Source: Candidatus Magasanikbacteria bacterium GW2011_GWC2_37_14 (GTDB lineage: Bacteria > Patescibacteriota > Patescibacteriia > Magasanikbacterales > UBA922). Taken from it: a stretch of 64,000 bases of DNA. Position numbers and translations under genes: made by a program. This document shows, in pieces, positions 10,324 through 63,718 of the stretch; position 1 is the first letter of the stretch; every line of letters starts with the position of its first letter. The stretch is from positions 21,489 through 85,488 of the forward strand of contig LBSX01000003.1 in NCBI GenBank assembly GCA_000990355.1, read 5' to 3'. Below the pieces are notes generated by a model, which worked only from the letters and a program-made list of their open reading frames with translations, did no database searches and was not told the origin of the DNA.

Positions 10324-10394
10324 CTGTCATGCTGAATTTATTTCAGCATCTCTCTTAAAATAAAAAAGATCCTGAAATAAATTCAGGATGACAG
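10324..10394. repeat. repeat family A: double hairpin tgtcatgctgaa-ttta-tttcagcat ... atcctgaa-ataaa-ttcaggatgaca
   Basis: Five copies or arrays in the window (also 43150, 43312, 51286, 51788), always intergenic and immediately upstream of a gene start. Confidence 0.7.
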
Positions 10395-10400
10395 ATTGTT

Positions 10401-47283: not shown

Positions 47284-47301
47284 TTTTGTAAATACTAGCT
47301 T

Positions 47302-48648
47302 ATGTTGGATAAAAATAATTTAAAAGTAAAAAATTGGTTGCAAAATAAAGAAGCTTTAAAAGAAACTGTTGATTTGGCCAATGTTTTTTTTGTTGGCAAA
47401 TGGCAAGAAGAAAGTGTTTTGGACTGGCTTAATAAATTAAATCAGCATTTAGAAGATTATAATCCCCTAAAAATTGCTAGTGATCTGGATACGGCTTTTG
47501 TAAATACAGTTTTAAATCTTTTAGATTATAATTTACTCAGCGAAATTAAAGATGTCTTAACAAAATTAATTGCCAACAAAACCGAGGCTGAGGCGCAAAA
47601 ATTAGATGAGTTAATTAAACAATTTGAACCAGATTTTTCCAATATTGCCGCTGTTTTACTTTGTTCCTTGCCAACCGATACTAGCGTGGCTTTAGAAGAA
47701 ATAGACTCAAAAGATCTCACCCCTGGTTTTTATCGGTTTTTGGGTCAATCAGTATTGGGCCACGAACATCAAGTAAGTTTTGAAGCTTTTAAAATTTTGG
47801 AAAGTAGTGTTTTTAACAATCAAAAAAACACTACCAAAGACAAATTGATTTTTATTGCAGTGATATTTTTGGCATATAACCAATTTAAAAGTTTAAGTTA
47901 TACCCAACAAATAGAATTATTACTCAGTTATTTTTGGTCAGCAATTGAGGTTGGTGTGCCTGTTGCCGAAATTTTTGCAGAGCAACTGCTTACTGAAAAT
48001 TCTTTGGTTGAATATATTAATACGAGTATTTTGTGGGGCAAGACAATTTTGGAAAGTAAAGAAGTAATTTTTATAGATAAAAATAAGCAAAACTTTTTAG
48101 TGGGGGATCTGGTGATTAAATATCTAATAATGGCGGGCAATGACATTTTGCTTGAAGATAAACAAAATAGTTATTTAGAAAAAATTATTAAAGAAAATAA
48201 TTTAAATAGTGATAAAAAAGAAAAATTAATTAGTTTACTTTCTTTTTATTTGCGTTTAAGCACCTGTAGTTTAGTAGACTATAATGGTTTGTTGCACGAG
48301 CAAGGCCTGGTAAAAACACCTTTTGATTGGCAAGAATTAATTAATAATGGTATCTCTGATTTACAAGCAGAAGAAATAAAAAAATACTTTTCACAGTTAC
48401 ACCAATCTTTGAGCATTAAAATTGAAATAGTTAATTCTTTACAAACCATGTCAAACTGGCGCGAGGAGCCTTATTTTGAAAGAATGCTTGCCCTTAGCCA
48501 ATCATATGAAGATGTTTGCGGGTTGTATTTTGGTCCTTTGGTTTATTTTGATGGCGAAAAAGATAAATGGGATTTTTATGTAGAATTACCCAATGGTTTA
48601 AAAGAAAAGTTTGAAGAATCATTTAAAAAATATGGAATTAAAGAATAA
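47302..48648 (+). CDS. hypothetical protein, paralogous to the next ORF
   Basis: Shared segment LLSYFWSAIEVGVPVAEIFAEQLL vs LLKNYFYTAIVAGVPVKIILDRFL. Confidence 0.5.
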   Translation: MLDKNNLKVKNWLQNKEALKETVDLANVFFVGKWQEESVLDWLNKLNQHLEDYNPLKIASDLDTAFVNTVLNLLDYNLLSEIKDVLTKLIANKTEAEAQKLDELIKQFEPDFSNIAAVLLCSLPTDTSVALEEIDSKDLTPGFYRFLGQSVLGHEHQVSFEAFKILESSVFNNQKNTTKDKLIFIAVIFLAYNQFKSLSYTQQIELLLSYFWSAIEVGVPVAEIFAEQLLTENSLVEYINTSILWGKTILESKEVIFIDKNKQNFLVGDLVIKYLIMAGNDILLEDKQNSYLEKIIKENNLNSDKKEKLISLLSFYLRLSTCSLVDYNGLLHEQGLVKTPFDWQELINNGISDLQAEEIKKYFSQLHQSLSIKIEIVNSLQTMSNWREEPYFERMLALSQSYEDVCGLYFGPLVYFDGEKDKWDFYVELPNGLKEKFEESFKKYGIKE

Positions 48649-49585
48649 TTTTTGGTTTAATTATCAGTTACAAAATTACCACGAAGTTGTTGATTCTTTT
48701 GGTTTGTTAGAAAACAAACGTTTGGAAATTATTTCAAAAATTGGCAAGTTGGGTGAAAGGATTTTTTTATATGTTGATTTTATTTCTAAAAAAATATTAC
48801 AACACCAAATTAAACCCGAAGTAAGTTTTGAAACCAATCTTATTAAATATTTGGATTTAGGATTATTAAATAATTTTATTAACGATCCTTTAAACAAAGA
48901 AAATCGCGATTTGTTTTCCGAACAGCTTTTGCTGGTTTATTCGGCTTTGGGCGGGGCTTTGCCTATAAATGCTTATTCGGTAGAAGAAATGTTACAAATC
49001 AAATCAGCCGAATATTTATATTATGATGATAATATTTTTGTGGGTACTTTACGTTATATTTTTAGTGATTTGGATGTATTTTATAAATATTTACCAAGTA
49101 TTAGCGACTATTTGTTTAGAGATGGCCAAAATTCTATTAAACAAAACTTTGATTGGCACACAGCTTTTATTTATTCGGCTTTAATTAATTTTTGCTGGTC
49201 AAGTTTTTGGTTTTTAAAAAGTGAAGAACAAGAAAATTTGCTTAAAAATTATTTTTATACGGCCATTGTTGCCGGAGTGCCGGTAAAAATTATTTTAGAT
49301 CGTTTTTTGGCTGTGGGCACTGCAGAAGAAAAAGTACGTTGTCAACAATTGTTTGCCAATGGTCTTGAAAATAATTTAGAAGAAGTTCCTTTGAATGGAG
49401 ATTTTACCGAGTGGAAAAAATTATTAGCTATTATCCGTGGTTTTTCGGTGCGAATTAAGGGTTCAAATTCTGGTTTTGAACAAGAAGAATTTTTAAAGGA
49501 ATTTTATCAAAATCAACCAGGGAGAGACGTTTATCGCGGTTGGCTACGAGAAGTTTTGAATATAGTGTTTAGTTTGGAAAAGTAG
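48611..49585 (+). CDS. hypothetical protein, paralogue of 47302..48648
   Basis: See previous entry; overlaps it by 38 nt (the start may be the ATG at 48632). Confidence 0.5.
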   Translation: MKNHLKNMELKNNFWFNYQLQNYHEVVDSFGLLENKRLEIISKIGKLGERIFLYVDFISKKILQHQIKPEVSFETNLIKYLDLGLLNNFINDPLNKENRDLFSEQLLLVYSALGGALPINAYSVEEMLQIKSAEYLYYDDNIFVGTLRYIFSDLDVFYKYLPSISDYLFRDGQNSIKQNFDWHTAFIYSALINFCWSSFWFLKSEEQENLLKNYFYTAIVAGVPVKIILDRFLAVGTAEEKVRCQQLFANGLENNLEEVPLNGDFTEWKKLLAIIRGFSVRIKGSNSGFEQEEFLKEFYQNQPGRDVYRGWLREVLNIVFSLEK

Positions 49586-49589
49586 TACA

Positions 49590-50062
49590 ATTATCAGTTT
49601 TCAATTTACAATTTACAATAAATTTTCAATTAAATAATTTTCAATGAATAAAAGTTCTAACAACTATGATTTGGAAGAACGTACAGCAGTATTTAGTGGA
49701 GAGATAATTAAATTTTGTAGAAGTCTAAAAGAAGATAATGTTACTAGACCGTTGATAAATCAGTTAGTGCGTTCTGGAACTAGTATCGGGGCAAATTATT
49801 GTGAAGCTAATAACGCGAGTTCAAAAAAGGATTTTCAAAATAAAATATTTATTTGTAAAAAAGAGGCACAAGAGACCAAATATTGGTTAAGGACACTTTC
49901 TACCTGTTGTCCAGAAGAAGTAGAAAATTTAAGGAAACTTTGGAAGGAAACACAAGAATTATTGATGATATTTCAAAAAATTGTGAATACTTTAAGAAGT
50001 AAATGATAATTGATAAATTGAAAATTTATTGTAAATTGTAAAATGGTTATTGTAAATTAAAC
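49590..50062. repeat. family C palindromic element split by a four-helix-bundle gene (left arm 49590-49646, right arm 50005-50062)
   Basis: The arms match the empty copies C1, C2 and C4; the 4HB ATG sits in the conserved centre aattttcaATG. Confidence 0.6.
49644..50006 (+). CDS. four-helix-bundle protein (23S rRNA-IVS protein family)
   Basis: LVRSGTSIGANYCEANNASSKKDFQNKIFICKKEAQETKYWLRTL. Confidence 0.7.
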   Translation: MNKSSNNYDLEERTAVFSGEIIKFCRSLKEDNVTRPLINQLVRSGTSIGANYCEANNASSKKDFQNKIFICKKEAQETKYWLRTLSTCCPEEVENLRKLWKETQELLMIFQKIVNTLRSK

Positions 50063-50066
50063 AATT

Positions 50067-51281
50067 ATGAGTAATTCTCCCACAATTCTAGTAAAGAAAG
50101 CTGACGGCACCCAGGTTCGCATGACCATGGAGGAGTTTAAGGTATACAAAAGTGGCGTTAATTCAGATAACAAAAAGCAAATAGCCTTCGTCCCGAGCTC
50201 AGGCCGAGGGGCAGATAGCATAAAAAAAATTGAGACAGCGGTTAAGACAGAAATAAAACATGAAGAGAAATTAGAAAATTTAGAAACTGAGAAATTAGTT
50301 GTTAACGACTTGCCAATGGTGTTGAATACCGAAGCTTTAACAACTACTGCACCAGTAAAAGAGGTGTTTGTAAATGAAGCGGAATATAAATCATTAAACC
50401 ATGAAAACATTAAAGCTTTAAAACAAGTTGAGCCTGTAAAAATAAAACAGCCAGTAATAAAGCCAGAAATAGTAAAAATAAAAAATTGGAAAGAGGATGA
50501 TTATAAATCTTTGCTGGATAGCCCAGAAACAGAAAAAGTGGCTCCAGTTGCTAGTGCGCCAGTAAACAAAAATGAACAATTAGCAGAAAAGATTATTTCG
50601 GCTCTGCCTTTTAAAGTTAATAATGACATTTTAGGTCGTTTGCGTTCTTTGGTACTGTCTCGAGTAAAAGAAATTCGTGATGATGACCAAGTAGTAAGTT
50701 ATGCCACTCGTGCCAAAGAAAATGGGGGACTGGGTTTGGCCGAATTAGCTGCTAGTGATTTGGTTGCTTTAATTAATAAATATTTACCAAGCAAATCAAA
50801 ATTAACCAAGACTGTTTTAGACGACGAAGAATCAGAAGCACCGCAAACTGCTACCAAAATGGCACCCGCCAAAGTCTATTTTCCCCAAACAGAAACCAAA
50901 AAGCCAGAAGTTGTGGGCAAACCAATAATGCAAGATGTAACGCCTCCACCGCCGGTAGAAAAGAGAAGTATGGGCCCTGTAGAAGAGTTTAAATTTATCA
51001 CTGTGGTAGATTTTCGTCGTTTGGCTACTAAACCAGAAGAGTGTACCAGAATTTTAAATGAAAAATTAATTGCTTTAAAAGCAGAATCATATTTAATTTA
51101 TAGCCAAGCAGTGGCTGGCTGGTTTGCTAGTCCATTGTATAGTAAATATTGCGAAGTTTTTAAAAGAAGTTTAAACGAAAAACAAAAAATAAGTGATTTA
51201 TTGTTAATTAAAAATAAAGAAGAATTAACTTTGGAAGAATTTAAAGCCCTATTGGAATTTAGTAGGGGGTTGAATGGTTAG
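50067..51281 (+). CDS. Lys-rich hypothetical protein
   Basis: ORF only; contains the 20-mer cccgagctcaggccgagggg (50192-50211), the reverse complement of a motif in prfB. Confidence 0.45.
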   Translation: MSNSPTILVKKADGTQVRMTMEEFKVYKSGVNSDNKKQIAFVPSSGRGADSIKKIETAVKTEIKHEEKLENLETEKLVVNDLPMVLNTEALTTTAPVKEVFVNEAEYKSLNHENIKALKQVEPVKIKQPVIKPEIVKIKNWKEDDYKSLLDSPETEKVAPVASAPVNKNEQLAEKIISALPFKVNNDILGRLRSLVLSRVKEIRDDDQVVSYATRAKENGGLGLAELAASDLVALINKYLPSKSKLTKTVLDDEESEAPQTATKMAPAKVYFPQTETKKPEVVGKPIMQDVTPPPPVEKRSMGPVEEFKFITVVDFRRLATKPEECTRILNEKLIALKAESYLIYSQAVAGWFASPLYSKYCEVFKRSLNEKQKISDLLLIKNKEELTLEEFKALLEFSRGLNG

Positions 51282-51285
51282 TGTC

Positions 51286-51342
51286 TGTCATGCTGAACTA
51301 GTTTCAGCATCCCAGGAGATCCTGAAATAAATTCAGGATGAC
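51286..51342. repeat. repeat family A copy
   Basis: ctgtcatgctgaactagtttcagcatcccaggagatcctgaaataaattcaggatgaca. Confidence 0.65.
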
Positions 51343-51350
51343 AAAACAAT

Positions 51351-51782
51351 ATGCAACAATTTGTAGTACCACAATTTATTGATGTTGAAGATAAAATTTT
51401 TGGGCCGATTACTACCCGTCAATTTTTAATTTTGTTGGCAGCAGGCTTGCTGATTTTTGTATTCTATAAATTAACAGATTTTGCTTTGTTTGTAACTCTT
51501 ACGGCAGTGTTGGGCGGGTTGGCACTGGTATTTGCTTTTGTAAAAATAAATGGCCAGCCTTTTCATTATTTTTTGTTAAATTTATTACAAACTTTGCGCA
51601 AACCCTCTTTAAGGGTCTGGAAGAAAAATTTGTCTGATGAAGAATTAAATTTTTTACGTAAATTAAATACCGAGAAAGCACCTGAAAAAATTGCTAGAAA
51701 AGAAGTAAAATCTGGGCATATCCATGATTTAGCATTACTCGTTAATACTGGTGGTTTTTATAAACCAGAGGATGAATTGTAA
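51351..51782 (+). CDS. PrgI/VirB3-like small membrane protein of type IV secretion systems
   Basis: MQQFVVPQFIDVEDKIFGPITTRQFLILL followed by 2 TM segments; directly upstream of VirB4. Confidence 0.5.
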   Translation: MQQFVVPQFIDVEDKIFGPITTRQFLILLAAGLLIFVFYKLTDFALFVTLTAVLGGLALVFAFVKINGQPFHYFLLNLLQTLRKPSLRVWKKNLSDEELNFLRKLNTEKAPEKIARKEVKSGHIHDLALLVNTGGFYKPEDEL

Positions 51783-51787
51783 TTATC

Positions 51788-51925
51788 TGTCATCCTGAAT
51801 TTATTTCAGGATCTCCTGTTAGCATTAAAAGTGTTGGGGATGCTGAAATGGTACTTGTCCTGAATTTATTTCAGGATTCAGCATGACAATTGCATTCAGG
51901 ATGACAACCAAGTTCAGCATGACAA
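51788..51925. repeat. array of family A half-sites (tgtcatcctgaa-tttat-ttcaggat; atgctgaa; gtcctgaatttatttcaggat; ttcagcatgaca x2; ttcaggatgaca)
   Basis: Six or more copies of the 12-nt half-site TGTCATSCTGAA or its reverse complement within 140 bp, upstream of the VirB4 genes. Confidence 0.65.
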
Positions 51926-51959
51926 ATAGAACGTTTTGTGTTAAAATGACAAGTGTAAT

Positions 51960-52649
51960 ATGGCCAAGAAACAAGAAATGAAAGGAAGAGTAAATAATAA
52001 GCCTTCGACCCAGGCTTATTTGCCTATTGCCGAAATTAGAGACGGGGTAGTTATCTTAAAAGATGGCACTTTGCGTAGTGTGCTAATGGTTTCTAGTATA
52101 AATTTTGCTTTAAAATCCGAAGATGAACAAAATGCTTTGGTATCGGCTTATGTGGGTTTTTTAAATTCATTGGATTTTCCTTTACAAATATTAATGCAGT
52201 CGCGACGTTTGCAAATAAAACCATATTTAGAAAAATTAGCCAAAATAGAACGTGAACAAACCAATGAATTGTTGCAAGTTCAAGTAGCCGATTACAAGGC
52301 TTTTATCGAAGAATTTGTAGAAATTGGGCAAATTATGACCAAGAGATTTTATGTAGTAGTGCCTTATGACCCCTTATCCAACAACAAAAAAAGCTTTTGG
52401 TCTAGATTTAAAGAAGTTTTAAAACCCGCAATTACTTTGCGCCTAAAAGATGAAAGGTTTAAAAAAAGAATAGAAGATTTGGAAATGCGTTTGCGTCAAG
52501 TAAGGAGCGGCTTAGAAAGTATGGGTTTGCAAATTGTACAACTAGACACCCAATCATTAATAGAATTATTTTATTCCACTTACAACCCCGATACTGCTTT
52601 TAGTGAGCAGTTGGGCAAAATAGGTGATATCCAAATAGAAAATATTTAA
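51960..52649 (+). CDS. VirB4/TraE-family N-terminal domain, encoded as a separate ORF
   Basis: YLPIAEIRDGVVILKDGTLRSVLMVSSINFALKSEDEQ, typical of the VirB4 N-terminus; stop TAA at 52647-52649 followed by ATG at 52651. Confidence 0.55.
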   Translation: MAKKQEMKGRVNNKPSTQAYLPIAEIRDGVVILKDGTLRSVLMVSSINFALKSEDEQNALVSAYVGFLNSLDFPLQILMQSRRLQIKPYLEKLAKIEREQTNELLQVQVADYKAFIEEFVEIGQIMTKRFYVVVPYDPLSNNKKSFWSRFKEVLKPAITLRLKDERFKKRIEDLEMRLRQVRSGLESMGLQIVQLDTQSLIELFYSTYNPDTAFSEQLGKIGDIQIENI

Positions 52650-52650
52650 T

Positions 52651-54519
52651 ATGGCCTTTAAGCCAATGCAAAATTTAAAGATTGATAATACTTTGAGTGG
52701 AGAATCAGTAAAAGAAAAAGCAAAAAAACAAATTGCCGAGGAAATTGTAAGTTTGGAAGAAGAAAAAGTTTATCGTCGCGGTACCGTGGCAATTCGGGAT
52801 TTAATTTCTCCTGCTGGTTTGCGCATCGAAAATAATTATATTCAATTGGGTGATGTATTTTTGCGCACTATTTTTGTAATCACTTATCCACGTTATATTG
52901 CCGTAGGTTGGGGCATGCCGATTTTAAATTTAAACATTACCATGGATGTTTCCATGTTTTTTTATCCAGTGCCTTCACCAATTATTTTAAAACAACTAAA
53001 GAAAAAAGTAGGTGCTTTGGAAGCACAAATTACTGGTGATGCCGAAAAAGGCGCTGCTCGCGACCCAATTCACGAAACTGCCCTTCGCGATATTGAACAA
53101 TTGCGTGATGATTTGACCCAAGGAGTGGAACATTTTTTTCAATTTTCTTTTTATGTAACTGTTTATGCCAAAGATTTAGACGAACTTAACCGGACTACCG
53201 AAGATGTAGAAAATATTTTTGGTTCCAAATTAATTTATAGTAAGCACGTGTTGTATCAAGCCGAACAAGGTTTTACTTCTACTTTGCCCCTCGGCATCGA
53301 CGAATTATCGATTGCTTTCAACATGAATTCTTCGCCAATTGCGGCTTCTTTTCCTTTTATTTCTTCGGAATTAACTTCGGATGATGGAATTTTGTATGGC
53401 ATTAATCGTCATAATAATAGTTTGATTATCTTTGATCGTTTTAGTTTACAAAATGCCAATATGGCAGTGTTTGCTACATCGGGTGCTGGCAAATCTTATA
53501 CCGTAAAGCTAGAAGTATTGCGCAGTTTAATGATGGGTGTGGATATTATTATTATTGATCCGGAAATGGAATATCAGCATTTGTGCGAAGCAGTGGGAGG
53601 TACTTATGTAAATATTTCTTTGGCTGCCGAAAGCAAGGTTAATCCTTTTGATTTACCACGACCAGTGGGTCAGCAGATTTCTACCGAAGATGTAATTCGT
53701 AGTGCCATTATTACCTTAAAAGGCTTAATCCGCATAATGTTCGGCAGTCTCAATGTTACTGAAGATTCCATTATGGATCGGGCTTTAAAAGAAACTTATG
53801 CCAAAAAAGATATTACGCCAGATTCTGATTTGGGTAGTATTGAACCGCCAATTATGCAGGATTTGCTAGAAGTTTTAGAAGGCATGCAAGGGGCAGAAAA
53901 TTTGGTGCTACGTTTAAGAAAATTTACCGAGGGTACTTTTTCGGGATTGTTCAATTCGCCCACCAATGTAAATATGAATAATCAGTTGGTGGTATTTTCG
54001 GTGCGTGATTTGGAAGACGAACTTCGCGCTATGGCAATTTACAATCTTATCAACTATGTTTGGAATATAGTTCGCAGTGAGCGCAAAAAAAGAATTTTAA
54101 TAATTGATGAAGCTTGGTGGTTAATGACTCACGAAGATAGTGCCAAATTTATTTATGCTTTGGTAAAACGTTGTCGCAAATATTATTTGGGGGTTACCAC
54201 TATTACCCAAGATGTGAGCGACTTTTTGCGTTCTCCCTATGGTCAGTCTATTGTAACCAATTCGGCTTTACAACTTTTATTGCGTCAAACACCAGCGGCA
54301 ATTGATATTGTACAAAAAACTTTTATGCTTACCGAAGGCGAAAAATATTTATTATTGGAAAGTGCAGTGGGTGAAGGAATATTTTTTGCTGGTTTAAAAC
54401 ATGCCGCGATTAAAGTAATTGCTTCTTATACCGAAGATCAGTTGGTAACTTCGGATCCCAAGCAATTAATGGAAATAGAAAAAGCTAAAAAAGAATACGA
54501 AGAACAAATGCTTAAATAA
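52651..54519 (+). CDS. VirB4/TrsE-family type IV secretion ATPase (C-terminal part, Walker A/B)
   Basis: Walker A ATSGAGKSYTV, Walker B ILIIDEAWWL, ITQDVSDF; the upstream part RGTVAIRDLISPAGLRIENNYIQLGDVFLRTIFVITYPRYI is typical. Confidence 0.75.
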   Translation: MAFKPMQNLKIDNTLSGESVKEKAKKQIAEEIVSLEEEKVYRRGTVAIRDLISPAGLRIENNYIQLGDVFLRTIFVITYPRYIAVGWGMPILNLNITMDVSMFFYPVPSPIILKQLKKKVGALEAQITGDAEKGAARDPIHETALRDIEQLRDDLTQGVEHFFQFSFYVTVYAKDLDELNRTTEDVENIFGSKLIYSKHVLYQAEQGFTSTLPLGIDELSIAFNMNSSPIAASFPFISSELTSDDGILYGINRHNNSLIIFDRFSLQNANMAVFATSGAGKSYTVKLEVLRSLMMGVDIIIIDPEMEYQHLCEAVGGTYVNISLAAESKVNPFDLPRPVGQQISTEDVIRSAIITLKGLIRIMFGSLNVTEDSIMDRALKETYAKKDITPDSDLGSIEPPIMQDLLEVLEGMQGAENLVLRLRKFTEGTFSGLFNSPTNVNMNNQLVVFSVRDLEDELRAMAIYNLINYVWNIVRSERKKRILIIDEAWWLMTHEDSAKFIYALVKRCRKYYLGVTTITQDVSDFLRSPYGQSIVTNSALQLLLRQTPAAIDIVQKTFMLTEGEKYLLLESAVGEGIFFAGLKHAAIKVIASYTEDQLVTSDPKQLMEIEKAKKEYEEQMLK

Positions 54520-54525
54520 CTAACT

Positions 54526-54618
54526 GTCATCCTGACCGAGTGTAGCAACGAGTGGAGGGATCTCTTAAACAATGTACAAGAGATTCCTCGACTTCGCTTC
54601 GCTACGCTCGGAATGACA
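54526..54618. repeat. inverted pair of family B repeats (gtcatcctgaccgag ... ggagggatctc and gagattcctcgacttcgcttcgctacgctcggaatgaca)
   Basis: The two copies face each other across a 15-nt spacer. Confidence 0.6.
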
Positions 54619-54623
54619 AATTT

Positions 54624-55199
54624 ATGTATATGCTTACACTACGTCAAAGAATTTTTGCTTACATTGGTATTTTTGTTGGTTTGGTGGTGGTTTTTTTGTT
54701 GGCTTATTTATTTATCAACAATAGTGGCGGGGTACGTGATTATGTAACAGAAAAAGGCACAAAAATTTTAAATATTAAACCCACAGGAGAGCAAACACCG
54801 GTGGCTACTACTACTCCAAACGTGGTAAAAGCCGACCCGCTTACTCCCGAGATTTATACCAAACAATTGTCACGAATTTTTGTCGAGCGTTTTAGTAGTT
54901 ATTCCAACCAAAATGATAATCTTCATATTAGCGAAGTAATTCCACTTTGTACCGAAACAATGGTTGCTTGGCTAAAGACACAAAATTTAACTAGTAGTTT
55001 GGATTATGCGGGGGTAACTACCAGAGTAATTGCCAGTAATGTTAGTAAAATTACTGCTACCTCGGCTACCGTGGAAATTCAAGTACAACAAGAAATAGAA
55101 AATAAAGCGGGAAAACAAGTGGTACAAAAAGATGGGCGTGTGGAACTTTTAAAAGTAGGCAATGATTGGAAAATAGATGGGTTGTATTGGCAAAAATAG
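54624..55199 (+). CDS. membrane-anchored hypothetical protein (start chosen downstream of the repeat)
   Basis: N-terminal TM IFAYIGIFVGLVVVFLLAYLFI; last gene of the T4SS-like cluster. Confidence 0.45.
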   Translation: MYMLTLRQRIFAYIGIFVGLVVVFLLAYLFINNSGGVRDYVTEKGTKILNIKPTGEQTPVATTTPNVVKADPLTPEIYTKQLSRIFVERFSSYSNQNDNLHISEVIPLCTETMVAWLKTQNLTSSLDYAGVTTRVIASNVSKITATSATVEIQVQQEIENKAGKQVVQKDGRVELLKVGNDWKIDGLYWQK

Positions 55200-55319: not shown

Positions 55320-55967
55320 ATGCTACATGGATTAATTAGTTTAATTAAAGATTATATTTTTCCCGTATATTGTCTAGGTTGCCAAACAGAAGGTGAGTGG
55401 GTTTGTAAAAATTGTTATAACAACATAAACGCGCAGAGCGTTTTTTGTTTTACAAATTTAGAGGATAATTTTGTTAATTTATTAATTTCGCCTTATCTTT
55501 ATCAAGAAAATGAACTGATCGGCAAAATTATTCAATATTTTAAATATCATTATGCAGAAGAATTAGAGCAGGTAATCTTTAATTTAATAAATAAATTTTT
55601 ATTAGAAAATAAAAATTTATTTGCAGAGATTGATTGTGTTATACCTGTGCCATTACATGCTCGGCGTTTGGCAGAGCGGGGATTTAACCAAGCCGAAGTT
55701 ATTGCTAAAATTTTAGGTGCTATTTTGAATAAGCCAGTTTTAAATAATTTGGGGCGTGTTCGATATACCAAGCAACAAGCCAAACTAAACAAATTGGCTA
55801 GGCAAGAAAATGTGGCTAGTGCTTTTGTGGTTAATGGTAAAATAAGCAATAATATTTTAATTGTTGATGATGTGTTTACTACAGGTGCGACTACAAAAGA
55901 ATGTGCCAAAGTGCTAAAACAAGCCGGAGCTAAAAAAATTATTGCCTTTACTTTGGCACGAGGTTAA
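55320..55967 (+). CDS. comFC: ComFC-family phosphoribosyltransferase-domain protein
   Basis: N-terminal C-x2-C...C-x2-C zinc motif; PRTase motif ILIVDDVFTTGAT. Confidence 0.75.
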   Translation: MLHGLISLIKDYIFPVYCLGCQTEGEWVCKNCYNNINAQSVFCFTNLEDNFVNLLISPYLYQENELIGKIIQYFKYHYAEELEQVIFNLINKFLLENKNLFAEIDCVIPVPLHARRLAERGFNQAEVIAKILGAILNKPVLNNLGRVRYTKQQAKLNKLARQENVASAFVVNGKISNNILIVDDVFTTGATTKECAKVLKQAGAKKIIAFTLARG

Positions 55968-56018: not shown

Positions 56019-56105
56019 GGAGAGATGGCTGAGTGGTCGATAGCAGCAGTTTACTAAACTGCAGTCCCCGTAAGGGGACCTAGGGTTCGAATCCCTATCT
56101 CTCCG
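56019..56105 (+). tRNA. type-II tRNA, Ser-like (G73, long variable arm) with anticodon loop TTACTAA, i.e. anticodon ACU by canonical numbering; no encoded CCA
   Basis: Hand-folded: acceptor GGAGAGA / TCTCTCC, D-stem GCT / AGC with an 11-nt loop, anticodon stem GCAGT / ACTGC, 18-nt variable hairpin GTCCCCGTAAGGGGAC, T-arm TAGGG-TTCGAAT-CCCTA. Confidence 0.7.
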
Positions 56106-56158
56106 CCTTCGCGCGCCGAAGCGCGCTTCGGCGGACAAAGTCCGCTAAATTAGACTTT

Positions 56159-56246
56159 GGAGAGGTGTCAGAGCGGTCTATCGTCCAGCTTTGCTAAAGC
56201 TGCAGGGGGCAACCCCTCGCGGGTTCGAATCCCGCCCTCTCCGCCA
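56159..56246 (+). tRNA. tRNA-Ser (anticodon GCU), CCA encoded
   Basis: Acceptor GGAGAGG / CCTCTCC, anticodon stem CAGCT / AGCTG with loop TTGCTAA, variable hairpin GGGGGCAACCCC, T-loop GGTTCGAATCC, then G-CCA. Confidence 0.85.
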
Positions 56247-56407: not shown

Positions 56408-56605
56408 ATGTCGACGATTGGTAAAAATATAAAAAATTTTAGAGAATTGAAAAAAATATCGCAGGATCGTCTTTCTAAACTTGCTGATATTTCATCTAAT
56501 ACAGTGGCGAAGCTAGAGTTAGATGATAGTACCAATCCAACTATTGATACTTTACAAAAGATAGCTGAAGCACTTGGTGTTAAGGTAGAAGATCTCATAA
56601 AATAA
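56408..56605 (+). CDS. XRE-family (Cro/CI-type) HTH transcriptional regulator
   Basis: IKNFRELKKISQDRLSKLADISSNTVAKLE...IDTLQKIAEALGV. Confidence 0.7.
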   Translation: MSTIGKNIKNFRELKKISQDRLSKLADISSNTVAKLELDDSTNPTIDTLQKIAEALGVKVEDLIK

Positions 56606-56608
56606 TTT

Positions 56609-59305
56609 ATGATCAATTTAGTAACCTTACAAGAAAATCTTGAAAATCTCAGTCAAAACTTTTCTAAAGAATCGTTTATTTTTGATTTGCTTTCTGTGTA
56701 TGAGTTACCCAAAAGCACTATTTCTTTATTGTCGAAAAGTCCTTCAAAATTATCTGGCAAAGAAGATCAGATTATTTTAAAAAACAAAGTACTTTTCCAC
56801 ATAACTACCCTTGAGGAAGATGAGCATGTTGCGATTGATGCACTACAAAAAGATAAGTCTTCATACAAGTTCAACCCGCGATTTATTATCGTTACAGACT
56901 TCGTAACCTTTTTAGCAATTGATACAAAAACAAAAGAAACACTTGATATTCAAATTGAGGATCTTGGCAAGCACTACGCTTTTTTCTTGCCATGGTGTGG
57001 TATGGAAAAATCTCAGCATGTAAATGAGAACCCTGCTGATATTCGTGCCGCCTACAAAATGGATAAGTTGTATCAAGCAATTGTGAACGACAATACTGAA
57101 TACTATAAAAACAACAGCCATGATCTAAATATATTTCTTTCACGCCTTTTGTTCTGTTTCTTTGCTGAGGATACTGGAATATTCCCTAAAACAGGAATGT
57201 TTACTAACTCTGTGACATCACACACCCATGAAAATGGCAACGAAATGGGTATTTATTTTTCAACTTTTTTTGATGTTTTAAATACTAAAGATTCTGAACG
57301 ATCAAAATATGCTTCACATTTCTTAGAATTTCCATATGTAAACGGAGGTCTTTTTGAAAGTAAGATTAAATTACCTACATTTACGGCAAGTTCACGAAAA
57401 CTGATTATTGAATGTGGAAAGTTGGACTGGAGTTCAATTAACCCAGATATTTTTGGATCTATGATTCAAGCTGTTGTTCATCCTGGCCAGAGAGAGAACC
57501 TTGGGATGCACTACACATCCGTTCCAAATATAATGAAAGTTATTGAACCTCTCTTTTTAAATAATCTCTATGAGGAAGTAAAAAATTCAAAGAATGATAC
57601 TAAAAAACTTGTAAAGCTCCGTGAACGAATCGCAAAAATTAAGATATTTGACCCCGCTTGTGGATCAGGTAATTTTCTTATTATTTCTTACAAAGAATTA
57701 TGTAAATTAGAGATTGAAATAATTAGATTACTAAATTTACAAAATTCATTTGCTACACAAGAAGGTTGGAATAGTACAATGTCAGGTATTACCTTAAATA
57801 ATTTTTATGGTATAGAGATAGACGATTTTGCACATGAAATAGCAAAGCTGTCTCTATATTTAGCTCAGCATCAAATAAACATTAAATTCCAAGAAGAGTT
57901 CGGAAAACTTAAACCAACCCTTCCTCTTAAAGAGAGCGGTAGAATCGTATATGCAAATGCAACTAGAATTGACTGGGATGAGGTTTGTCTTAAGAAAGAC
58001 CGTTTTGGGAATGAATATGAAATATATATTATCGGGAACCCACCATATTTAGGTTCAAAAAATCAGGATATTGAGCAAAAAAATGATATGGCTATTACTT
58101 TTAAGGGGGTGGAAGATTATAAAAAGTTAGATTATGTTGCTTGTTGGTTTTACATTGCATCTTCGTATATTCAAAATACAAATGTACAGTATGCTTTTGT
58201 GACTACCAACTCTATTACACAAGGTGAACAAGTATCCCTACTTTGGAACCTTATTTTAAGCAGAAATCAAGAAATTTTTCTTGCGCACCAATCATTCAAA
58301 TGGACAAATAATGCTAAGGGAAATGCAGGAGTTGCTGTTGTGGTTATTGGAATTAGAAATATTAATGATTCTGAAAAGTATCTTTATAACCAGGATCACA
58401 GACAGCTAGTAAAAAACATAAGTCCATATTTAACCAATACTTCAAACATTTTTATTTTACCACGAAACAATTCTTTAGGAAATTTTCCCTTAATGATTAC
58501 AGGTAGTGGTCCTGGTGATGACGGAAATTTGATTTTAGATATAGATGAAAAAGAAAAACTGATTATACAAAATAATAAGATTGAAAGTTTCTTAAAAAAA
58601 TATATTGGAGCGCAAGAATTTATTGGTAATACATATAGATATTGTATTTATATTACACAAGAAAATGTGAGTGCGGCTTATAAAATAACTCAATTAGTAC
58701 AACGATTTGAAAAAGTAAAAGCATTCAGATTGGCAAGTAAAAAAGAAGGAACCAAAAAAAAGGCCGTTACACCACATTTTTTTGATGAAGATCGATACAG
58801 GGATGATGAATTTATTTTAGTTCCTAAGGTAGGTTCTGAAAGACGAGAATATCTCCCAATTGGGTATTTTGATGGAACATTTCTTCCTTCTAACACGACA
58901 AAAGTTATTTATAATGCTAAACCTTGGCTTTTCGGTATCTTGTCTTCTAAAATGCACATTGTTTGGGTAAGAGCAGTTGCCGGAAGGTTAAAAACAGATA
59001 TGCAATATTCAAACACACTATGCTATAACACTTTCCCATTTCCGAATGTAACAGAAAAGCAAAAAGAGTCTCTCTCAAGTCATGTGTACAATATTTTAGA
59101 AGAACGAGAGAGGTATCCAGAAAAATCAATGGCAGAACTGTATGATCCAGATAAGATGCCTAATGGTTTAAGAGAAGCTCATAGATACTTAGATCAAGCC
59201 ATAGATCAGATATACCGAGGTAAACCGTTTGAAAGTGACGATGACCGACTAGCTCACTTGTTCAAACTTTACGAAGAGATGATTATTAGAAAAAATAACG
59301 AATAA
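56609..59305 (+). CDS. MmeI-family type IIL restriction-modification enzyme (N-terminal endonuclease, gamma-class N6-adenine methyltransferase, C-terminal TRD in one polypeptide)
   Basis: Motif order FDPACGSGNFL (I) then IIGNPPYLG (IV). Long colinear similarity to MmeI as recalled: LLFCFFAEDT, FPYVNGGLF, YGIEIDDFAHEIAKLSLYLAQHQ, VTTNSITQGEQVSLLW, FKWTN. Size 898 aa (MmeI is 919 aa). Confidence 0.75.
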   Translation: MINLVTLQENLENLSQNFSKESFIFDLLSVYELPKSTISLLSKSPSKLSGKEDQIILKNKVLFHITTLEEDEHVAIDALQKDKSSYKFNPRFIIVTDFVTFLAIDTKTKETLDIQIEDLGKHYAFFLPWCGMEKSQHVNENPADIRAAYKMDKLYQAIVNDNTEYYKNNSHDLNIFLSRLLFCFFAEDTGIFPKTGMFTNSVTSHTHENGNEMGIYFSTFFDVLNTKDSERSKYASHFLEFPYVNGGLFESKIKLPTFTASSRKLIIECGKLDWSSINPDIFGSMIQAVVHPGQRENLGMHYTSVPNIMKVIEPLFLNNLYEEVKNSKNDTKKLVKLRERIAKIKIFDPACGSGNFLIISYKELCKLEIEIIRLLNLQNSFATQEGWNSTMSGITLNNFYGIEIDDFAHEIAKLSLYLAQHQINIKFQEEFGKLKPTLPLKESGRIVYANATRIDWDEVCLKKDRFGNEYEIYIIGNPPYLGSKNQDIEQKNDMAITFKGVEDYKKLDYVACWFYIASSYIQNTNVQYAFVTTNSITQGEQVSLLWNLILSRNQEIFLAHQSFKWTNNAKGNAGVAVVVIGIRNINDSEKYLYNQDHRQLVKNISPYLTNTSNIFILPRNNSLGNFPLMITGSGPGDDGNLILDIDEKEKLIIQNNKIESFLKKYIGAQEFIGNTYRYCIYITQENVSAAYKITQLVQRFEKVKAFRLASKKEGTKKKAVTPHFFDEDRYRDDEFILVPKVGSERREYLPIGYFDGTFLPSNTTKVIYNAKPWLFGILSSKMHIVWVRAVAGRLKTDMQYSNTLCYNTFPFPNVTEKQKESLSSHVYNILEERERYPEKSMAELYDPDKMPNGLREAHRYLDQAIDQIYRGKPFESDDDRLAHLFKLYEEMIIRKNNE

Positions 59306-59309
59306 TTTT

Positions 59310-61247
59310 ATGAAAACCATTCAAGTCGCAGAAGCAACATACGCACAAACTGGAGAAAGTACCAAAATCAATAGTTTTGGTATGCGTGAAATGCAGGCAA
59401 AAGCATTCGAAAAAAGAACTGCGCAGTACCTCCTTTTGAAAGCTCCTCCAGCATCAGGAAAATCTCGAGCTTTAATGTTCCTTGCTTTGGACAAGCTCAC
59501 TAATCAAGGTATCAAGAAAGTAATTGTAGCTGTTCCTGAAAAATCAATCGGCGGATCTTTCAGCGAAACTAATTTAACTGATAGTGGATTTTTCGCAGAC
59601 TGGAAACCAAATGATAATTATAATCTTTGTACCCCTGGCCTTGATAATGCCAAAGGAAAGGTTGAAGCGTTTAAGAACTTTATGGAAAACAATGAGAAGA
59701 TTCTTATCTGTACCCACGCTACATTTCGTTTTGCTTGTGAACAAATTGAAGATACAAAATTTAATGACATACTCATTGCTATAGATGAATTCCACCATGT
59801 TTCTGCTGATAAAGAGAGTAGTATTTTAGGACGTGTATTGCATGGGATAATGACTAACTCAAATGCTCACGTTATTGCGATGACTGGATCATATTTCCGA
59901 GGTGACGGTGTCGCTGTTTTGTTACCAGAAGACGAGGCTAAATTTCAGAAAGTAACATATAACTATTATCAACAATTGAATGGTTACACCTATTTAAAGA
60001 CTTTGGGCATCGGATATCACTTTTATCAAGGCAGGTACACATCAGCAATCGCTGAGGTTTTGGATACGAATAAGAAAACGATTTTACATATTCCAAACGT
60101 AAATTCTGGGGAATCTACAAAAGACAAACTTAATGAGGTTGATTTGATTTTAGATATTATTGGTGAAGTAGATCATCAAGATCATGAGACTGGAGTTATT
60201 TATGTGAAGCGTGATGGTGATGGGAAAATTCTAAAAGTAGCAAACCTTGTTGATGATTCAGTAGATCGAGATAAAATTTCAAACTATCTTCGTACTATGA
60301 GAAAAGAAGATGACATGGATATTATTATTGCTCTTGGTATGGCAAAAGAAGGTTTTGACTGGCCATATTGTGAACATGCTTTAACTGTTGGTTACCGTAG
60401 TTCACTTACTGAAATTATTCAGATCATTGGTCGCTGTACTCGTGATAGTGCAAATAAGACTCATTCACAGTTTACAAACCTTATCGCACAGCCCGATGCA
60501 AAAGATGGTGAAGTTAAGGTGTCTGTAAACAATATGCTTAAAGCAATAACTTGTTCTTTGCTTATGGAGCAAGTCATGGCCCCTCACTATAACTTCAAAC
60601 CACGCTTTCCAAATGATGATACTGCATTTACTCCAGGTGAAATTAAAATAAATGGTTTTAAAGCACCAAGCACTGATCGTGTACGAGAGATTATTGAATC
60701 TGATATCAACGACCTTAAAGCTTCAATTCTTCAAGATGACCAGATGATTAAGGCATTGCCTGGAAATGTTGACCCAGAGGTAATAAACAAGGTAATGATT
60801 CCAAAGATTATTCAAATCAAATATCCTGATCTCACAGATCTTGAAGTTGAAGAAGTTCGTCAGCATGTAGTAGTTGATTCTGTAATTAAAAATGGAGAAA
60901 TAAAAGAAGTTGGAGATAAGAAATTTGTTCGTATGGCAGGTCAATTTGTTAATATTGACGATCTTAATATCGACCTTATCGACCGCATTAATCCATTTCA
61001 AGAAGCTTTTGAGATTCTTTCAAAGTCAGTTACATCAAATATTCTTAAGGTTATACAAGATACAATTGATTCATCACGAATTGAAATGACACCTGAAGAG
61101 GTTAAGATTCTATGGCCTAAAGCCAAGGAGTTCACCATACAAACGGGTCGAAAGCCCGACATTTCATCATCTGATCCTCTTGAGAAGCGTTTGGCAGAAG
61201 CCGTTCTTTATTTGAAGAAACTTAAGGCTGAACAAATTCAAAATTAA
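59310..61247 (+). CDS. SF2 (DEAH-type) helicase/ATPase, co-operonic with the MmeI-like gene
   Basis: Motif I APPASGKSRA, motif II IDEFHH, motif III MTGSYF, motif VI QIIGRCTR; 4-nt gap to the upstream gene. Confidence 0.7.
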   Translation: MKTIQVAEATYAQTGESTKINSFGMREMQAKAFEKRTAQYLLLKAPPASGKSRALMFLALDKLTNQGIKKVIVAVPEKSIGGSFSETNLTDSGFFADWKPNDNYNLCTPGLDNAKGKVEAFKNFMENNEKILICTHATFRFACEQIEDTKFNDILIAIDEFHHVSADKESSILGRVLHGIMTNSNAHVIAMTGSYFRGDGVAVLLPEDEAKFQKVTYNYYQQLNGYTYLKTLGIGYHFYQGRYTSAIAEVLDTNKKTILHIPNVNSGESTKDKLNEVDLILDIIGEVDHQDHETGVIYVKRDGDGKILKVANLVDDSVDRDKISNYLRTMRKEDDMDIIIALGMAKEGFDWPYCEHALTVGYRSSLTEIIQIIGRCTRDSANKTHSQFTNLIAQPDAKDGEVKVSVNNMLKAITCSLLMEQVMAPHYNFKPRFPNDDTAFTPGEIKINGFKAPSTDRVREIIESDINDLKASILQDDQMIKALPGNVDPEVINKVMIPKIIQIKYPDLTDLEVEEVRQHVVVDSVIKNGEIKEVGDKKFVRMAGQFVNIDDLNIDLIDRINPFQEAFEILSKSVTSNILKVIQDTIDSSRIEMTPEEVKILWPKAKEFTIQTGRKPDISSSDPLEKRLAEAVLYLKKLKAEQIQN

Positions 61248-61248
61248 T

Positions 61249-62403
61249 ATGGATAAAAAAGATTTACTAGATTTAATAGATGATGATGATTTAGGACTTC
61301 TTGATATAGAGAAGAAAACTGTTTCGGTTACGCCGGATGATCGATTATCAGAATCATTTATGGAAATAAATGAGTTCTTTTCATTACATAATATCGAGCC
61401 AAAAAGTGGTGGAGACATTCATGAACATAAACTAGCATCACGTCTCAAACATATTAGAGAAAACAAAGAACAAAGAGACTTTCTTAGTAAGTACGATACT
61501 CATGGTCTGTTAAAAATCGAGAATAAAGACATCGATACAGTAAATGATATTTTTGAAGACGATGATTTAGATCTTCTTTCAATTGAAGATAGTTCTGTTT
61601 TTAATATAAAGAATGTGCCAGAAATAAAACAAGATCGTTCTGATCCTGACTTTGTTGCACAGAGAAAGATTTGTGCTGATTTTGATCAGTATGAACATTT
61701 GTTCGCACAGGTTCAAAGAGATTTGAAAAATGGCACAAAAAATCTCGCGACTTTTGTAGAAAATGAAATGAAACAGGGGGATTTCTTTGTTCTTAGTGGT
61801 GTTTTAATATATCTAGAAAAAATCTATGATCCATACCGAGGTAATAGTCAAAAAATAAATAGAAGAACTCGCTGTATATATGAGAATGGTACCGAATCAA
61901 GTGTACTTTTACGTTCGCTAGGAAAGAGATTGTCTGATGTAGGTTACGCCATAAAAGATAATGTAAATGTTGTAAGTGTTGAAGATGGCGATTCAGAAAC
62001 CGGTTATATTTATGTTCTCAAGTCACTAAGTAACAATCCTAGAATTGCTAGCACAAAAAACCTTTTTAAAATTGGCTTCTCAACCACTAGTGTTGAAGAA
62101 CGTATAAAGAACGCGCAACAGGATCCTACTTATCTTATGTCCCCAGTTTCTATTGTTGCTACCTACAGATGTTTTAATATGAATCCTCAAAGATTTGAGA
62201 GATTAGTACATCGTTTCTTTGGTGATTCATGTCTAGATATTGAGATCACTGACAACAACGGAAAAAACTACAATCCAAAAGAGTGGTTTATTGCCCCAAT
62301 TAGGGTGATTGGGAATGTTATTGAATTAATTATCAAAGGAGAGATTGTTAATTACTTTTATGATAAAAACGCAGAATCAATTATAAAGATTTCTAATCCT
62401 TAA
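61249..62403 (+). CDS. T5orf172/MUG113 (GIY-YIG-related) domain protein with an acidic repeat N-terminus
   Basis: GYIYVLKS...LFKIGFSTTSVEERIKN...PVSIVATY matches the T5orf172 core; N-terminal acidic repeats DLLDLIDDDDLGLLDIE / IFEDDDLDLLSIED; 1-nt gap after the helicase gene. Confidence 0.6.
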   Translation: MDKKDLLDLIDDDDLGLLDIEKKTVSVTPDDRLSESFMEINEFFSLHNIEPKSGGDIHEHKLASRLKHIRENKEQRDFLSKYDTHGLLKIENKDIDTVNDIFEDDDLDLLSIEDSSVFNIKNVPEIKQDRSDPDFVAQRKICADFDQYEHLFAQVQRDLKNGTKNLATFVENEMKQGDFFVLSGVLIYLEKIYDPYRGNSQKINRRTRCIYENGTESSVLLRSLGKRLSDVGYAIKDNVNVVSVEDGDSETGYIYVLKSLSNNPRIASTKNLFKIGFSTTSVEERIKNAQQDPTYLMSPVSIVATYRCFNMNPQRFERLVHRFFGDSCLDIEITDNNGKNYNPKEWFIAPIRVIGNVIELIIKGEIVNYFYDKNAESIIKISNP

Positions 62404-63718
62404 GTAGTGTTAATATTTTATCTTTATAAACAATTCTTGATCTCAAATTTCCAAGCAGTTCTCTCTTCTCGCTAACCGATCCCTCCTTTAAAATATACTT
62501 AGCATAGTTCCGTATATCTGTGTCTTCTCTATTCTTCATTTTATCAGTACTACCAAGTACTGACCTTTGAAATATATTAAATCTGGCAATTTCATTTTCT
62601 AGCTTTTGTCGCATTCCAAGTTCGTTAATATTTACTTTATCCAATATCTTTAATAGCTCAATTATTAAATCTTCCTCTCGTATATACTTATTTTTACAAT
62701 TTCTGTCTCTCGCTCTTGAACATGAATAGTAAATATATCTTGCATGTGTGCCATCTTTTAATTGTTTATATTTTTCTTCAGCAGAAATTCCACTGCCACA
62801 ATACCCACAGGTAAATAACTTAGTAAATGAGAACTCGTGATTTTCTCGAACTATCTGGTCTCTTTTTAATTGGGCTCTAGCTTTTTCAAATAATTCTTGG
62901 GTTATTAGTGGTTCATGTTTTCCTGTATACCAATTTCCACTTCCTCTTGGACTTTCAAATACTCCATAATAAAAACTGTTATTAATTATTCTATATACCC
63001 CAGCCAATGTCAGCGGTTTATTGCCACGAGTATAAAAATTTAGTTCATGCTTTAGCCAATTATATATTTTTCTGCCCGAATAATGTTCATTAGCAACTTT
63101 TTCAAACATTTTTTTAATTGCTGGAGCACGCAGTGGATCAACTATCACTTGGCATTTCTTATCCATTAGTTTTTGATTTAGATATCCAAGTGGTGCCACA
63201 CCTGGCCACAATCCCATTTCTACTCTAGTTCTTAAACCTCGTTTTACATTTATTCCTCTATTATCATTTTCAAGTTTGGCTTGCGATCCCAATATCATCA
63301 ACAGGAACTTTTCGTTTGGATTATTACCAAATCTCTGTCCGAACGTCCTTATTTCTACAAGAGCGCCCGAATCCATTAAATCTACTATTTTCCCTAAGTC
63401 CCCAGCATTTCTGGAAATTCTGTCTGGTGCCCAAGTCAAAATACCATTGAATTTACCTTGTTTTAATTCCTCTATGATTTCATTGAAAATTGGCCTTTGA
63501 CCAGTTTCTTTGGCCGAGTGGGATTCTCTTTTCATTGTAACCACATCTAAATTCTCCTTTTCTGCCAGCTGAAGCATCTCCTTAATTTGGCTATCTATGG
63601 AGAGAACCTGCCTTTCCTCTGATTCTGTTGATTTTCTTGCGTAAAGGCAGTATTTTACCTTAATTTGGGTCGTTATTTTGCCCGTAGACCCCGTGGGCAT
63701 TAGTGCGATATTCATCAT
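62393..63718 (-). CDS. large serine recombinase (resolvase catalytic domain + recombinase domain + zinc ribbon)
   Basis: YARKSTESEERQVLSIDSQ (catalytic Ser region), GILTWAPDRISRN, C-terminal CGYCGSGISAEE ... YYSC. Confidence 0.8.
   Translation of the reverse strand: MMNIALMPTGSTGKITTQIKVKYCLYARKSTESEERQVLSIDSQIKEMLQLAEKENLDVVTMKRESHSAKETGQRPIFNEIIEELKQGKFNGILTWAPDRISRNAGDLGKIVDLMDSGALVEIRTFGQRFGNNPNEKFLLMILGSQAKLENDNRGINVKRGLRTRVEMGLWPGVAPLGYLNQKLMDKKCQVIVDPLRAPAIKKMFEKVANEHYSGRKIYNWLKHELNFYTRGNKPLTLAGVYRIINNSFYYGVFESPRGSGNWYTGKHEPLITQELFEKARAQLKRDQIVRENHEFSFTKLFTCGYCGSGISAEEKYKQLKDGTHARYIYYSCSRARDRNCKNKYIREEDLIIELLKILDKVNINELGMRQKLENEIARFNIFQRSVLGSTDKMKNREDTDIRNYAKYILKEGSVSEKRELLGNLRSRIVYKDKILTLLKD

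Follow-up and report, generated by a model that had tools for sequence, protein, structure and literature searches.

The window analysed here comprises 64,000 nucleotides (nt) of contig LBSX01000003.1 (positions 21,489 to 85,488) from a Candidatus Magasanikbacteria genome, a member of the candidate phyla radiation (CPR), and all coordinates below are those of the window. On its plus strand, an unbroken open reading frame (ORF) at 56609-59305 encodes a protein of 898 amino acids (aa) that is related to the restriction enzyme MmeI and that we refer to as the methylase. An identical protein from a Candidatus Magasanikbacteria genome is on deposit as a hypothetical protein. Two further genes follow within a few nucleotides on the same strand, one for a YeeB-like superfamily 2 (SF2) helicase and one for a YeeC-like protein with a GIY-YIG-type domain; a small helix-turn-helix (HTH) gene precedes this trio, and a large serine recombinase gene converges on it from the other side (Table 1).

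Table 1. Features of the methylase locus, in window coordinates. MTase, methyltransferase; TRD, target recognition domain.
Feature	Coordinates	Strand	Size and position	Evidence
tRNA-Ser (anticodon ACU)	56019-56107	+	first of two tandem genes, left border of the putative cassette	ARAGORN; Rfam tRNA, 57.8 bits
tRNA-Ser (anticodon GCU)	56159-56246	+	second of the tandem genes, left border of the putative cassette	ARAGORN; Rfam tRNA, 39.8 bits
Cro/C1-type HTH protein	56408-56605	+	65 aa; ends 3 nt before the methylase start	ORF; Pfam HTH_3, E 1e-14
YeeA/DnmA-type MmeI homologue, predicted MTase and target-recognition subunit without nuclease catalytic residues	56609-59305	+	898 aa	ORF, Pfam, PADLOC, AF2, Foldseek
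N-terminal domain, predicted degenerate restriction-endonuclease-like fold	56609-57088	+	aa 1-160	Pfam MmeI_N aa 5-160, E 5e-23
Helical spacer	57089-57538	+	aa 161-310	Pfam MmeI_hel aa 171-249, E 1e-23; helical in model
MTase segment with motifs I and IV	57539-58438	+		Pfam MmeI_Mtase aa 326-593, E 6e-104; motif conservation in 81 relatives
Motif I, FDPACGSGNFL	57647-57679	+	aa 347-357	
Motif IV, NPPY	58037-58048	+	aa 477-480	
TRD	58439-59050	+	aa 611-814	Pfam MmeI_TRD aa 612-813, E 5e-72; gap-free register with MmeI; pair statistics; PMC2731914 rules
C-terminal helical bundle	59051-59305	+	aa 815-898 and stop codon	Pfam MmeI_C aa 815-891, E 9e-23; model helices 816-897
YeeB-like SF2 (DEAD/ResIII) helicase	59310-61247	+	645 aa; 4 nt past the methylase stop	Pfam ResIII, DEAD, Helicase_C
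YeeC-like protein	61249-62403	+	384 aa; 1 nt past the helicase gene; C-terminal T5orf172 (GIY-YIG-type) domain, aa 252-361	Pfam T5orf172, E 7e-14; MUG113, E 2e-13
Large serine recombinase	62393-63718	-	441 aa; convergent with the YeeC-like gene, 11-nt overlap	Pfam Resolvase, Recombinase, Zn_ribbon_recom

The 898-aa protein is a true member of the MmeI superfamily, as the first-pass annotation of this DNA had recognised. All five MmeI Pfam domains occur in it in order, each well over its cut-off, and the PADLOC model for Type IIG enzymes (REase_MTase_IIG) matches it from end to end (E 8.5e-301, 998 bits). Against the MmeI chain of PDB 5HR4, phmmer aligns residues 89-891 with MmeI residues 107-902 at 38% identity (E 2e-183). 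An AlphaFold 2 (AF2) model of the full-length protein, with a predicted local distance difference test score (pLDDT) of 82, superposes on the same structure over the spacer, methyltransferase (MTase), target recognition domain (TRD) and C-terminal bundle (Foldseek E 2e-63; template modelling (TM) score 0.87, normalised to the target). MTase motif I is identical in 77 of 81 distant relatives, and motif IV reads NPPY in 76 of them and NPPF in five; both are present in the window protein, whose gamma-class N6-adenine MTase is intact in its motifs and not degenerate, and a further block that had been pointed out behind NPPY, VTTNSITQGEQVSLLW, lies at aa 531-546. The TRD had been placed at about residues 620-898; this is roughly right for the TRD itself (612-813), while the remainder of that interval is the C-terminal helical bundle.

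What, then, of the nuclease? Cleavage by MmeI depends on D70, E80 and K82, and mutating any one of them stops it (PMC4833311; PMC2731913). With the N-terminal sequence of MmeI checked against PDB 5HR4, we found these residues to be invariant in all 113 of the 113 canonical MmeI-type N-domains collected. The phmmer alignment of the window protein starts only at query residue 89 and MmeI residue 107, and colinear similarity therefore ends before MmeI's catalytic segment. The conserved blocks that had been reported over the nuclease-proximal region accordingly exist in the C-terminal half of the N-domain and not in the catalytic segment. Restricting the phmmer search of the PDB to the N-terminal 192 aa did not extend the alignment, which stayed at residues 89-192, and we therefore turned to a profile-profile comparison, in which a profile of the query subfamily (120 sequences) was set against the canonical MmeI N-domain profile with hhalign. 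The two are homologous (probability 99%, E 6e-17). In this alignment MmeI D70 falls on a gap beside D53 of the methylase (56765-56767), E80 on H64 (56798-56800), K82 on T66 (56804-56806) and E51 on S42. Nor are the residues found at the first three positions constant within the subfamily, or of a chemistry suited to catalysis: 120 close homologues have D/N/G at 53, H/K/Q/R at 64 and T/E at 66, and in 81 distant members from many phyla the same positions are mostly G (also D), K/R and V/E/T/A, respectively. Relatives of the N-domain fold include HsdR nuclease domains, BpuSI and several proteins described as having a 'restriction endonuclease-like fold'. Judged from alignment and model together, the N-domain of the methylase retains a restriction-endonuclease-like fold from which the D...ExK catalytic residues are all gone, and because equivalents of D70, E80 and K82 are absent, no intrinsic cleavage is to be expected of this protein. 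The first-pass annotation, which took the ORF for a whole single-chain restriction-modification (R-M) enzyme with a cut some 20 nt away from the site, had itself named the N-terminal PD-ExK residues as the place where that idea could fail; they are missing, and the idea does not survive the check.

Other residues in this part of the protein are strongly conserved. K58 of the N-domain is near-invariant among YeeA-type proteins (74/81 of the diverse set), and R91, D105, E133 and D144, in the N-domain and linker, are invariant or almost so; at the equivalents of D105, E133 and D144, canonical MmeI has the variable residues D123, Q151 and N162. E133 and D144 flank a linker (aa 134-140) with pLDDT < 50 in the model. 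These five residues could form a partner interface, contact DNA or serve some other role.

The two partner proteins are conserved where an SF2 helicase and a GIY-YIG-type protein carry their signatures. In the helicase family, motifs I (PPASGKS, 46-52), II (DEFHH, 159-163), III (TGS, 192-194) and VI (Q371..G374-R375..R378) are at least 95% conserved among 67 homologues, as are 198 of the 645 columns across phyla. The same level is reached among 59 homologues of the YeeC-like protein by G252, Y255, K274-I275-G276, R285, E317, H321 and E345-W346-F347; its Pfam matches are to T5orf172 and MUG113, both of which belong to the GIY-YIG clan. The window copies carry every one of these residues, and the pattern of conserved columns points to strong constraint on both partners across phyla. 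Searches of PDB sequences with phmmer returned nothing significant for the helicase (best E 0.29, RNA helicases) or for the YeeC-like protein. Pfam scans detected no domain in the C-terminal 225 aa of the helicase or in the N-terminal 250 aa of the YeeC-like protein, and no nuclease domain anywhere in the helicase. The N-terminal half of the latter contains two similar acidic motifs, LLDLIDDDDLGLLD at aa 6-19 (61264-61305) and IFEDDDLDLLSI at aa 101-112 (61549-61584), and several residues within aa 1-250 are conserved across phyla (F37, F43, P51, E59, R139, G184, R206 and N213-T215).

The same trio, with its genes in the same order, is met again in many bacterial phyla and on plasmids. We compared 80 loci with methylase relatives (43-55% identical), taken from species-representative genomes of Bacteroidota, Pseudomonadota, Actinomycetota, Bacillota, Chlamydiota, CPR and others, and counted linkage in the 69 loci having at least 3.3 kb of downstream sequence. 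A helicase homologue (45-74% identity) lies downstream on the same strand in 67/69, and in 64/69 the helicase is followed directly by a T5orf172 protein, with strand and order preserved. Both partner ORFs of the window are full length and colinear with their homologues throughout, including those of Vibrio renipiscarius (L060). On conjugative plasmids the three genes bear the RefSeq labels DNA methyltransferase, DEAD/DEAH box helicase and GIY-YIG nuclease family protein, and Bacillus homologues carry the same trio (L071, and plasmid pBTBD59S1 at 46.8% identity). The YeeA-YeeB-YeeC class is widespread: more than 594 matched stretches turned up in species-representative genomes, and methylase relatives occur in hundreds of plasmid records when YeeA-type and canonical MmeI-type proteins are counted together.

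The related loci differ in what lies between the genes. Extra genes, spanning 1-6 kb, separate methylase and helicase in 22/72 related loci (for example L001 10703-12567, L028 10688-12337, L040 10652-11404, L034 10725-15495 and L051 2830-8683). Among their products are RhuM-family, DUF3800, Abi_C and Schlafen AlbA_2/HATPase_c_4 proteins, and two of the inserted ORFs are very large, at 1086 and 1284 aa. The genome of Actinotignum timonense holds two of the loci, L064 and L072, the second of which has a complete trio.

Which DNA site might the methylase recognise? Its TRD aligns with that of MmeI without gaps at an offset of 11 (phmmer), so that the specificity positions engineered in MmeI (PMC2731914) can be read directly in the window protein. 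Recognition position 3, governed by E751/N773 in MmeI, corresponds to K740/N762; position 4, A774/R810 in MmeI, to T763/Q799; and position 6, E806/R808 in MmeI, to K795/D797. Among 81 subfamily members the position-6 pair is KxD in 42, ExR in 27 and RxD in 5, and the position-3 pair is mostly R/D (24) or S/N (16). As the same co-varying pairs set G versus C recognition in MmeI enzymes, the YeeA-type subfamily uses the MmeI code. Reading the site from the TRD contacts, a step that had been proposed earlier, proved feasible: KxD at the MmeI 806/808 positions gives a reasonably firm prediction of G at position 6, the last of the site. Position 4 is weakly predicted to be C or N, because without Arg at the MmeI 810 position no purine-specific contact would be made there, and position 3 is ambiguous.

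The TRD is also the part of the protein that changes most between close relatives. Averaged over 100 close homologues, identity to the methylase is 86% in the N-domain, 83% in the spacer, 64% in the MTase and 79% in the C-terminal bundle, as against 35% in TRD-N and 54% in TRD-C. These 100 proteins display 33 different six-residue specificity signatures, and that of the window protein, KNTQKD, is shared with eight of them. The TRDs are mosaic, swapped or diversified among near-identical scaffolds, a pattern that would be expected of an arms-race or defence system. Such exchange of TRDs on a constant scaffold speaks against an orphan methylase with a purely regulatory role, but does not in itself prove restriction.

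What kind of system is this, then? Morgan et al. (2009, PMC2731913) divided the MmeI homologues into two sets. Members of the first possess PD-ExK, are active as single chains and have no consistent flanking genes; in members of the second PD-ExK is absent, the first 100 residues differ, and genes for a DEAD helicase like YeeB and for a GIY-YIG protein like YeeC 'invariably' follow. Endonuclease activity was not seen for two proteins of the second set, B. subtilis YeeA and M. osloensis MslORFHP, and the authors speculated that the altered N-domain docks helicase and nuclease (PMC2731913). YeeA has been renamed DnmA and produces N6-methyladenine (m6A) at GACGAG, i.e. GACGm6AG (PMC7261158), and in B. 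subtilis this m6A modulates promoter activity (PMC7261158; PMC9973331). The window locus shows every architectural feature of the second set, a match made on architecture and published description. Its own site is presumably not GACGAG, since the TRD signature differs.

With a probability of about 0.78, we consider the ORF to encode not a self-contained MmeI-type enzyme but the MTase and specificity subunit of a defence operon that comprises three genes, resembles R-M systems and is of the YeeA(DnmA)-YeeB-YeeC type. In such an operon the methylase would bind a short asymmetric site of 6-7 bp and, by analogy with B. subtilis DnmA and MmeI, convert the penultimate A of one strand to m6A. Where a site is unmethylated, the degenerate N-domain may, following Morgan et al. 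(2009), serve as a docking or coupling module through which helicase and GIY-YIG nuclease are recruited or activated; these two would then supply ATP-dependent translocation and DNA cleavage. On this account the whole trio would function like a Type ISP, Type I or Type III enzyme whose activities have been split up.

Several points weigh against a restricting three-gene operon. Contact of the N-domain with helicase or nuclease is conjecture, and the recognition prediction borrows rules from nuclease-active MmeI enzymes. In the literature that we searched, restriction by a YeeABC system is nowhere shown biochemically. The B. subtilis cluster has no effect on transformation or phage infection and has been termed a relic (PMC9973331), and motif avoidance in phage genomes gives no sign of active R-M there (PMC7261158; PMC9973331). 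Two loci, L031 (methylase match 8001-10625) and L064 (8001-10727), have no helicase or GIY-YIG gene within 8 kb downstream, so that solitary use of the methylase does occur (2/69). It is from these solitary copies, together with the B. subtilis deletions of dnmA, yeeB or yeeC, which leave transformation and phage sensitivity unchanged while m6A modulates promoters, that the main rival draws its strength, namely an orphan or epigenetic methyltransferase whose helicase and GIY-YIG neighbours are non-restricting relics, as proposed for DnmA-YeeB-YeeC. For the window locus we hold this to be unlikely, though worth more credit than any other rival. Both partner ORFs are full length and colinear with their homologues, their signature residues are all intact in a family with nearly a third of the helicase columns highly conserved, the TRDs are exchanged on near-identical scaffolds in a manner typical of an arms race, and the cassette looks recently mobile (see below). 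Moreover, yeeAB of Vibrio crassostreae mediates resistance to a phage subclade (bioRxiv 10.1101/2021.05.05.442762).

The remaining readings fare far worse. That the protein might both methylate and, on its own, cut about 20/18 nt downstream of its site, as a single-chain MmeI-type (Type IIL/IIG) enzyme, is what the full-length match to the five Pfam domains and the PADLOC Type IIG model, and the identity and TM score to the MmeI structure, would suggest at first sight. It is nevertheless highly improbable, for the equivalents of D70, E80 and K82 are neither present nor conserved, the two tested members of the subgroup, YeeA and MslORFHP, were without endonuclease activity (PMC2731913), and helicase and GIY-YIG genes are near-invariably linked, whereas nuclease-active MmeI homologues have no consistent flanking genes (PMC2731913). 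Only marginally better are the prospects of an N-domain that still cuts through a non-canonical site built from K58, R91, D105, E133 and D144. The near-invariance of these residues in the subfamily, the lack of conservation of D105, E133 and D144 at the equivalent canonical positions and the retained fold are what such a site would call for; yet neither YeeA nor MslORFHP had endonuclease activity when expressed by itself, E133 and D144 sit at the edges of the low-confidence linker, off the beta2/beta3 catalytic strands, and a dedicated nuclease gene is linked in most loci (64/69). Least probable of all is a PglX-like MTase of a bacteriophage exclusion (BREX) system, the fallback offered by the first-pass annotation, or DrmMI of a defence island system associated with restriction-modification (DISARM). 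The MTase core does match PglX models weakly and locally, the MTase/TRD part does the same with DrmMI models, and PglX structures appear far down the Foldseek list; but the BREX_1_MTaseX score of 49.4 bits stays far under the cut-off of 500, the protein is 898 aa long and not about 1200, it carries the MmeI_N, hel, TRD and C domains, and its conserved partners are a helicase and a GIY-YIG protein. None of PglZ, BrxC, BrxL, DrmA, DrmB and DrmC was found in the 64-kb window, and with scores under the cut-offs and no partner genes there, BREX and DISARM were rejected.

The operon sits in a setting that looks mobile. Two CPR loci from another genome, L081 and L082, contain a 70%-identical methylase homologue and the same five genes in the same order beside a tRNA-Glu, and the similarity of L081 to the window is confined to 56534-63667. 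Recombinase homologues occupy the same position in L081 (12764-14044), L082 and the Peribacteria locus L021 (10718-12010), the last with a tRNA-Trp upstream, whereas the homologue of the Moraniibacteriota locus L004 (2-1165) is found on the upstream side of the methylase, about 4.4 kb away; other relatives are without both the HTH gene and the recombinase. The recombinase is probably the mobility gene of the cassette. The HTH gene is found at the same place in the close CPR relatives L081 and L082, and a search of the 80 distant loci gave a match in one only, weak and on the opposite strand; not being conserved in these loci, it is no core component of the system. Its product is possibly a C-protein-like controller of the operon, as known from some R-M systems. 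Related cassettes border different tRNA genes (Ser in the window, Glu in L081, Trp in L021). The cassette looks mobile, and operon, HTH gene and recombinase at the tRNA genes together probably constitute a mobile cassette, with the tRNA-Ser pair as a possible insertion landmark. A search within the window for attachment-site (att)-like direct or inverted repeats flanking the cassette gave short chance-level matches only, and the mobile element may run past the right end of the window. Scans for consensus promoters and terminators likewise gave counts at shuffle level.

More speculatively, and with the odds rather against it, the CPR trio may be part of a self-contained five-gene module, with the HTH protein as controller and the large serine recombinase as fifth gene, that inserts beside varied tRNAs and swaps whole TRDs on a scaffold that hardly varies. 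The degenerate N-domain, with K58, R91, D105, E133 and D144, would be the coupling switch by which recognition of an unmethylated site leads to recruitment of helicase and nuclease. If true, so compact a module would make a good model for solving how YeeABC systems restrict DNA.

Both tRNA-Ser genes score over the Rfam tRNA threshold. The first has the anticodon ACU in the loop UUACUAA, and both tRNAs would read AGY codons; apart from tRNA-Arg(ACG), it is unusual for a bacterial tRNA to have an unmodified A at position 34. A gene cluster upstream of the cassette, at 43420-55199 (+), resembles those for type IV secretion or conjugation. Among its products are a multi-pass membrane protein of 1287 aa, a P-loop ATPase of the VirB4/TraG type (52651-54519) and a protein with weak similarity to PrgI, and it is followed by a ComF-type phosphoribosyltransferase at 55320-55967. 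Giant ORFs of 3962 aa (13105-24993) and 2915 aa (33018-41765) are located farther upstream. Outside the cassette, the window content consists of housekeeping genes and the type-IV-secretion-like cluster.

Why does the distinction between a single-chain enzyme and a subunit matter? Automated annotation repeats the single-chain error, the PADLOC Type IIG model giving 998 bits to a protein predicted to be unable to cut alone, and since automated tools mislabel such proteins, the distinction bears on defence-system annotation and on restriction-enzyme mining. The YeeA-YeeB-YeeC class is very common, with conflicting phenotypes in Bacillus and Vibrio, and the literature we searched contained no paper giving a mechanism or a newer name. 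What we add is the constraint on the partners across phyla, the MmeI code combined with TRD swapping, and a compact, apparently mobile CPR version. These comparative data leave the classification of the system unchanged.

How does the trio compare with known systems? To BREX PglX and DISARM DrmMI the window protein is distantly homologous in the MTase core and, in part, in the TRD, but it falls far under the family cut-offs and differs in size and domain set. With Type ISP (LlaGI, LlaBIII), Type I and Type III enzymes the locus has in common a gamma-class MTase and TRD combined with an SF2 ATPase and a nuclease, as well as an asymmetric site that is probably methylated on one strand. It departs from them in splitting the three activities over separate polypeptides and in having a nuclease of the GIY-YIG type and not of the Mrr/PD-(D/E)XK type. 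From Type I systems in particular it differs in having no HsdS, its TRD being fused to the MTase, and in that the nuclease is a separate GIY-YIG-type protein, whereas HsdR joins a PD-(D/E)XK nuclease to the SF2 motor.

Much closer are the Type IIL (IIG) enzymes MmeI and NmeAIII, which share the five-domain layout, the 38% identity over aa 89-891, the MTase motifs and the TRD code (ExR/KxD and related pairs). As motifs and recognition code are the same as in MmeI, one-strand m6A is expected of the methylase too. The window protein differs from these enzymes in lacking D70/E80/K82 equivalents and in its apparent dependence on two linked partner genes, of which MmeI enzymes have none. The closest match is to the YeeA-YeeB-YeeC systems of B. 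subtilis, of the second set of Morgan et al. and, as yeeAB, of V. crassostreae. Shared with these are an MmeI homologue divergent over the first ~100 aa and without PD-ExK, a DEAD/SF2 helicase next on the same strand and then a T5orf172/GIY-YIG protein, and a horizontally acquired setting beside recombinase genes. The version described here is distinguished from them by its CPR host, Candidatus Magasanikbacteria, and by two additional genes, a Cro/C1-type HTH gene that abuts the methylase and a large serine recombinase gene that abuts the nuclease gene.

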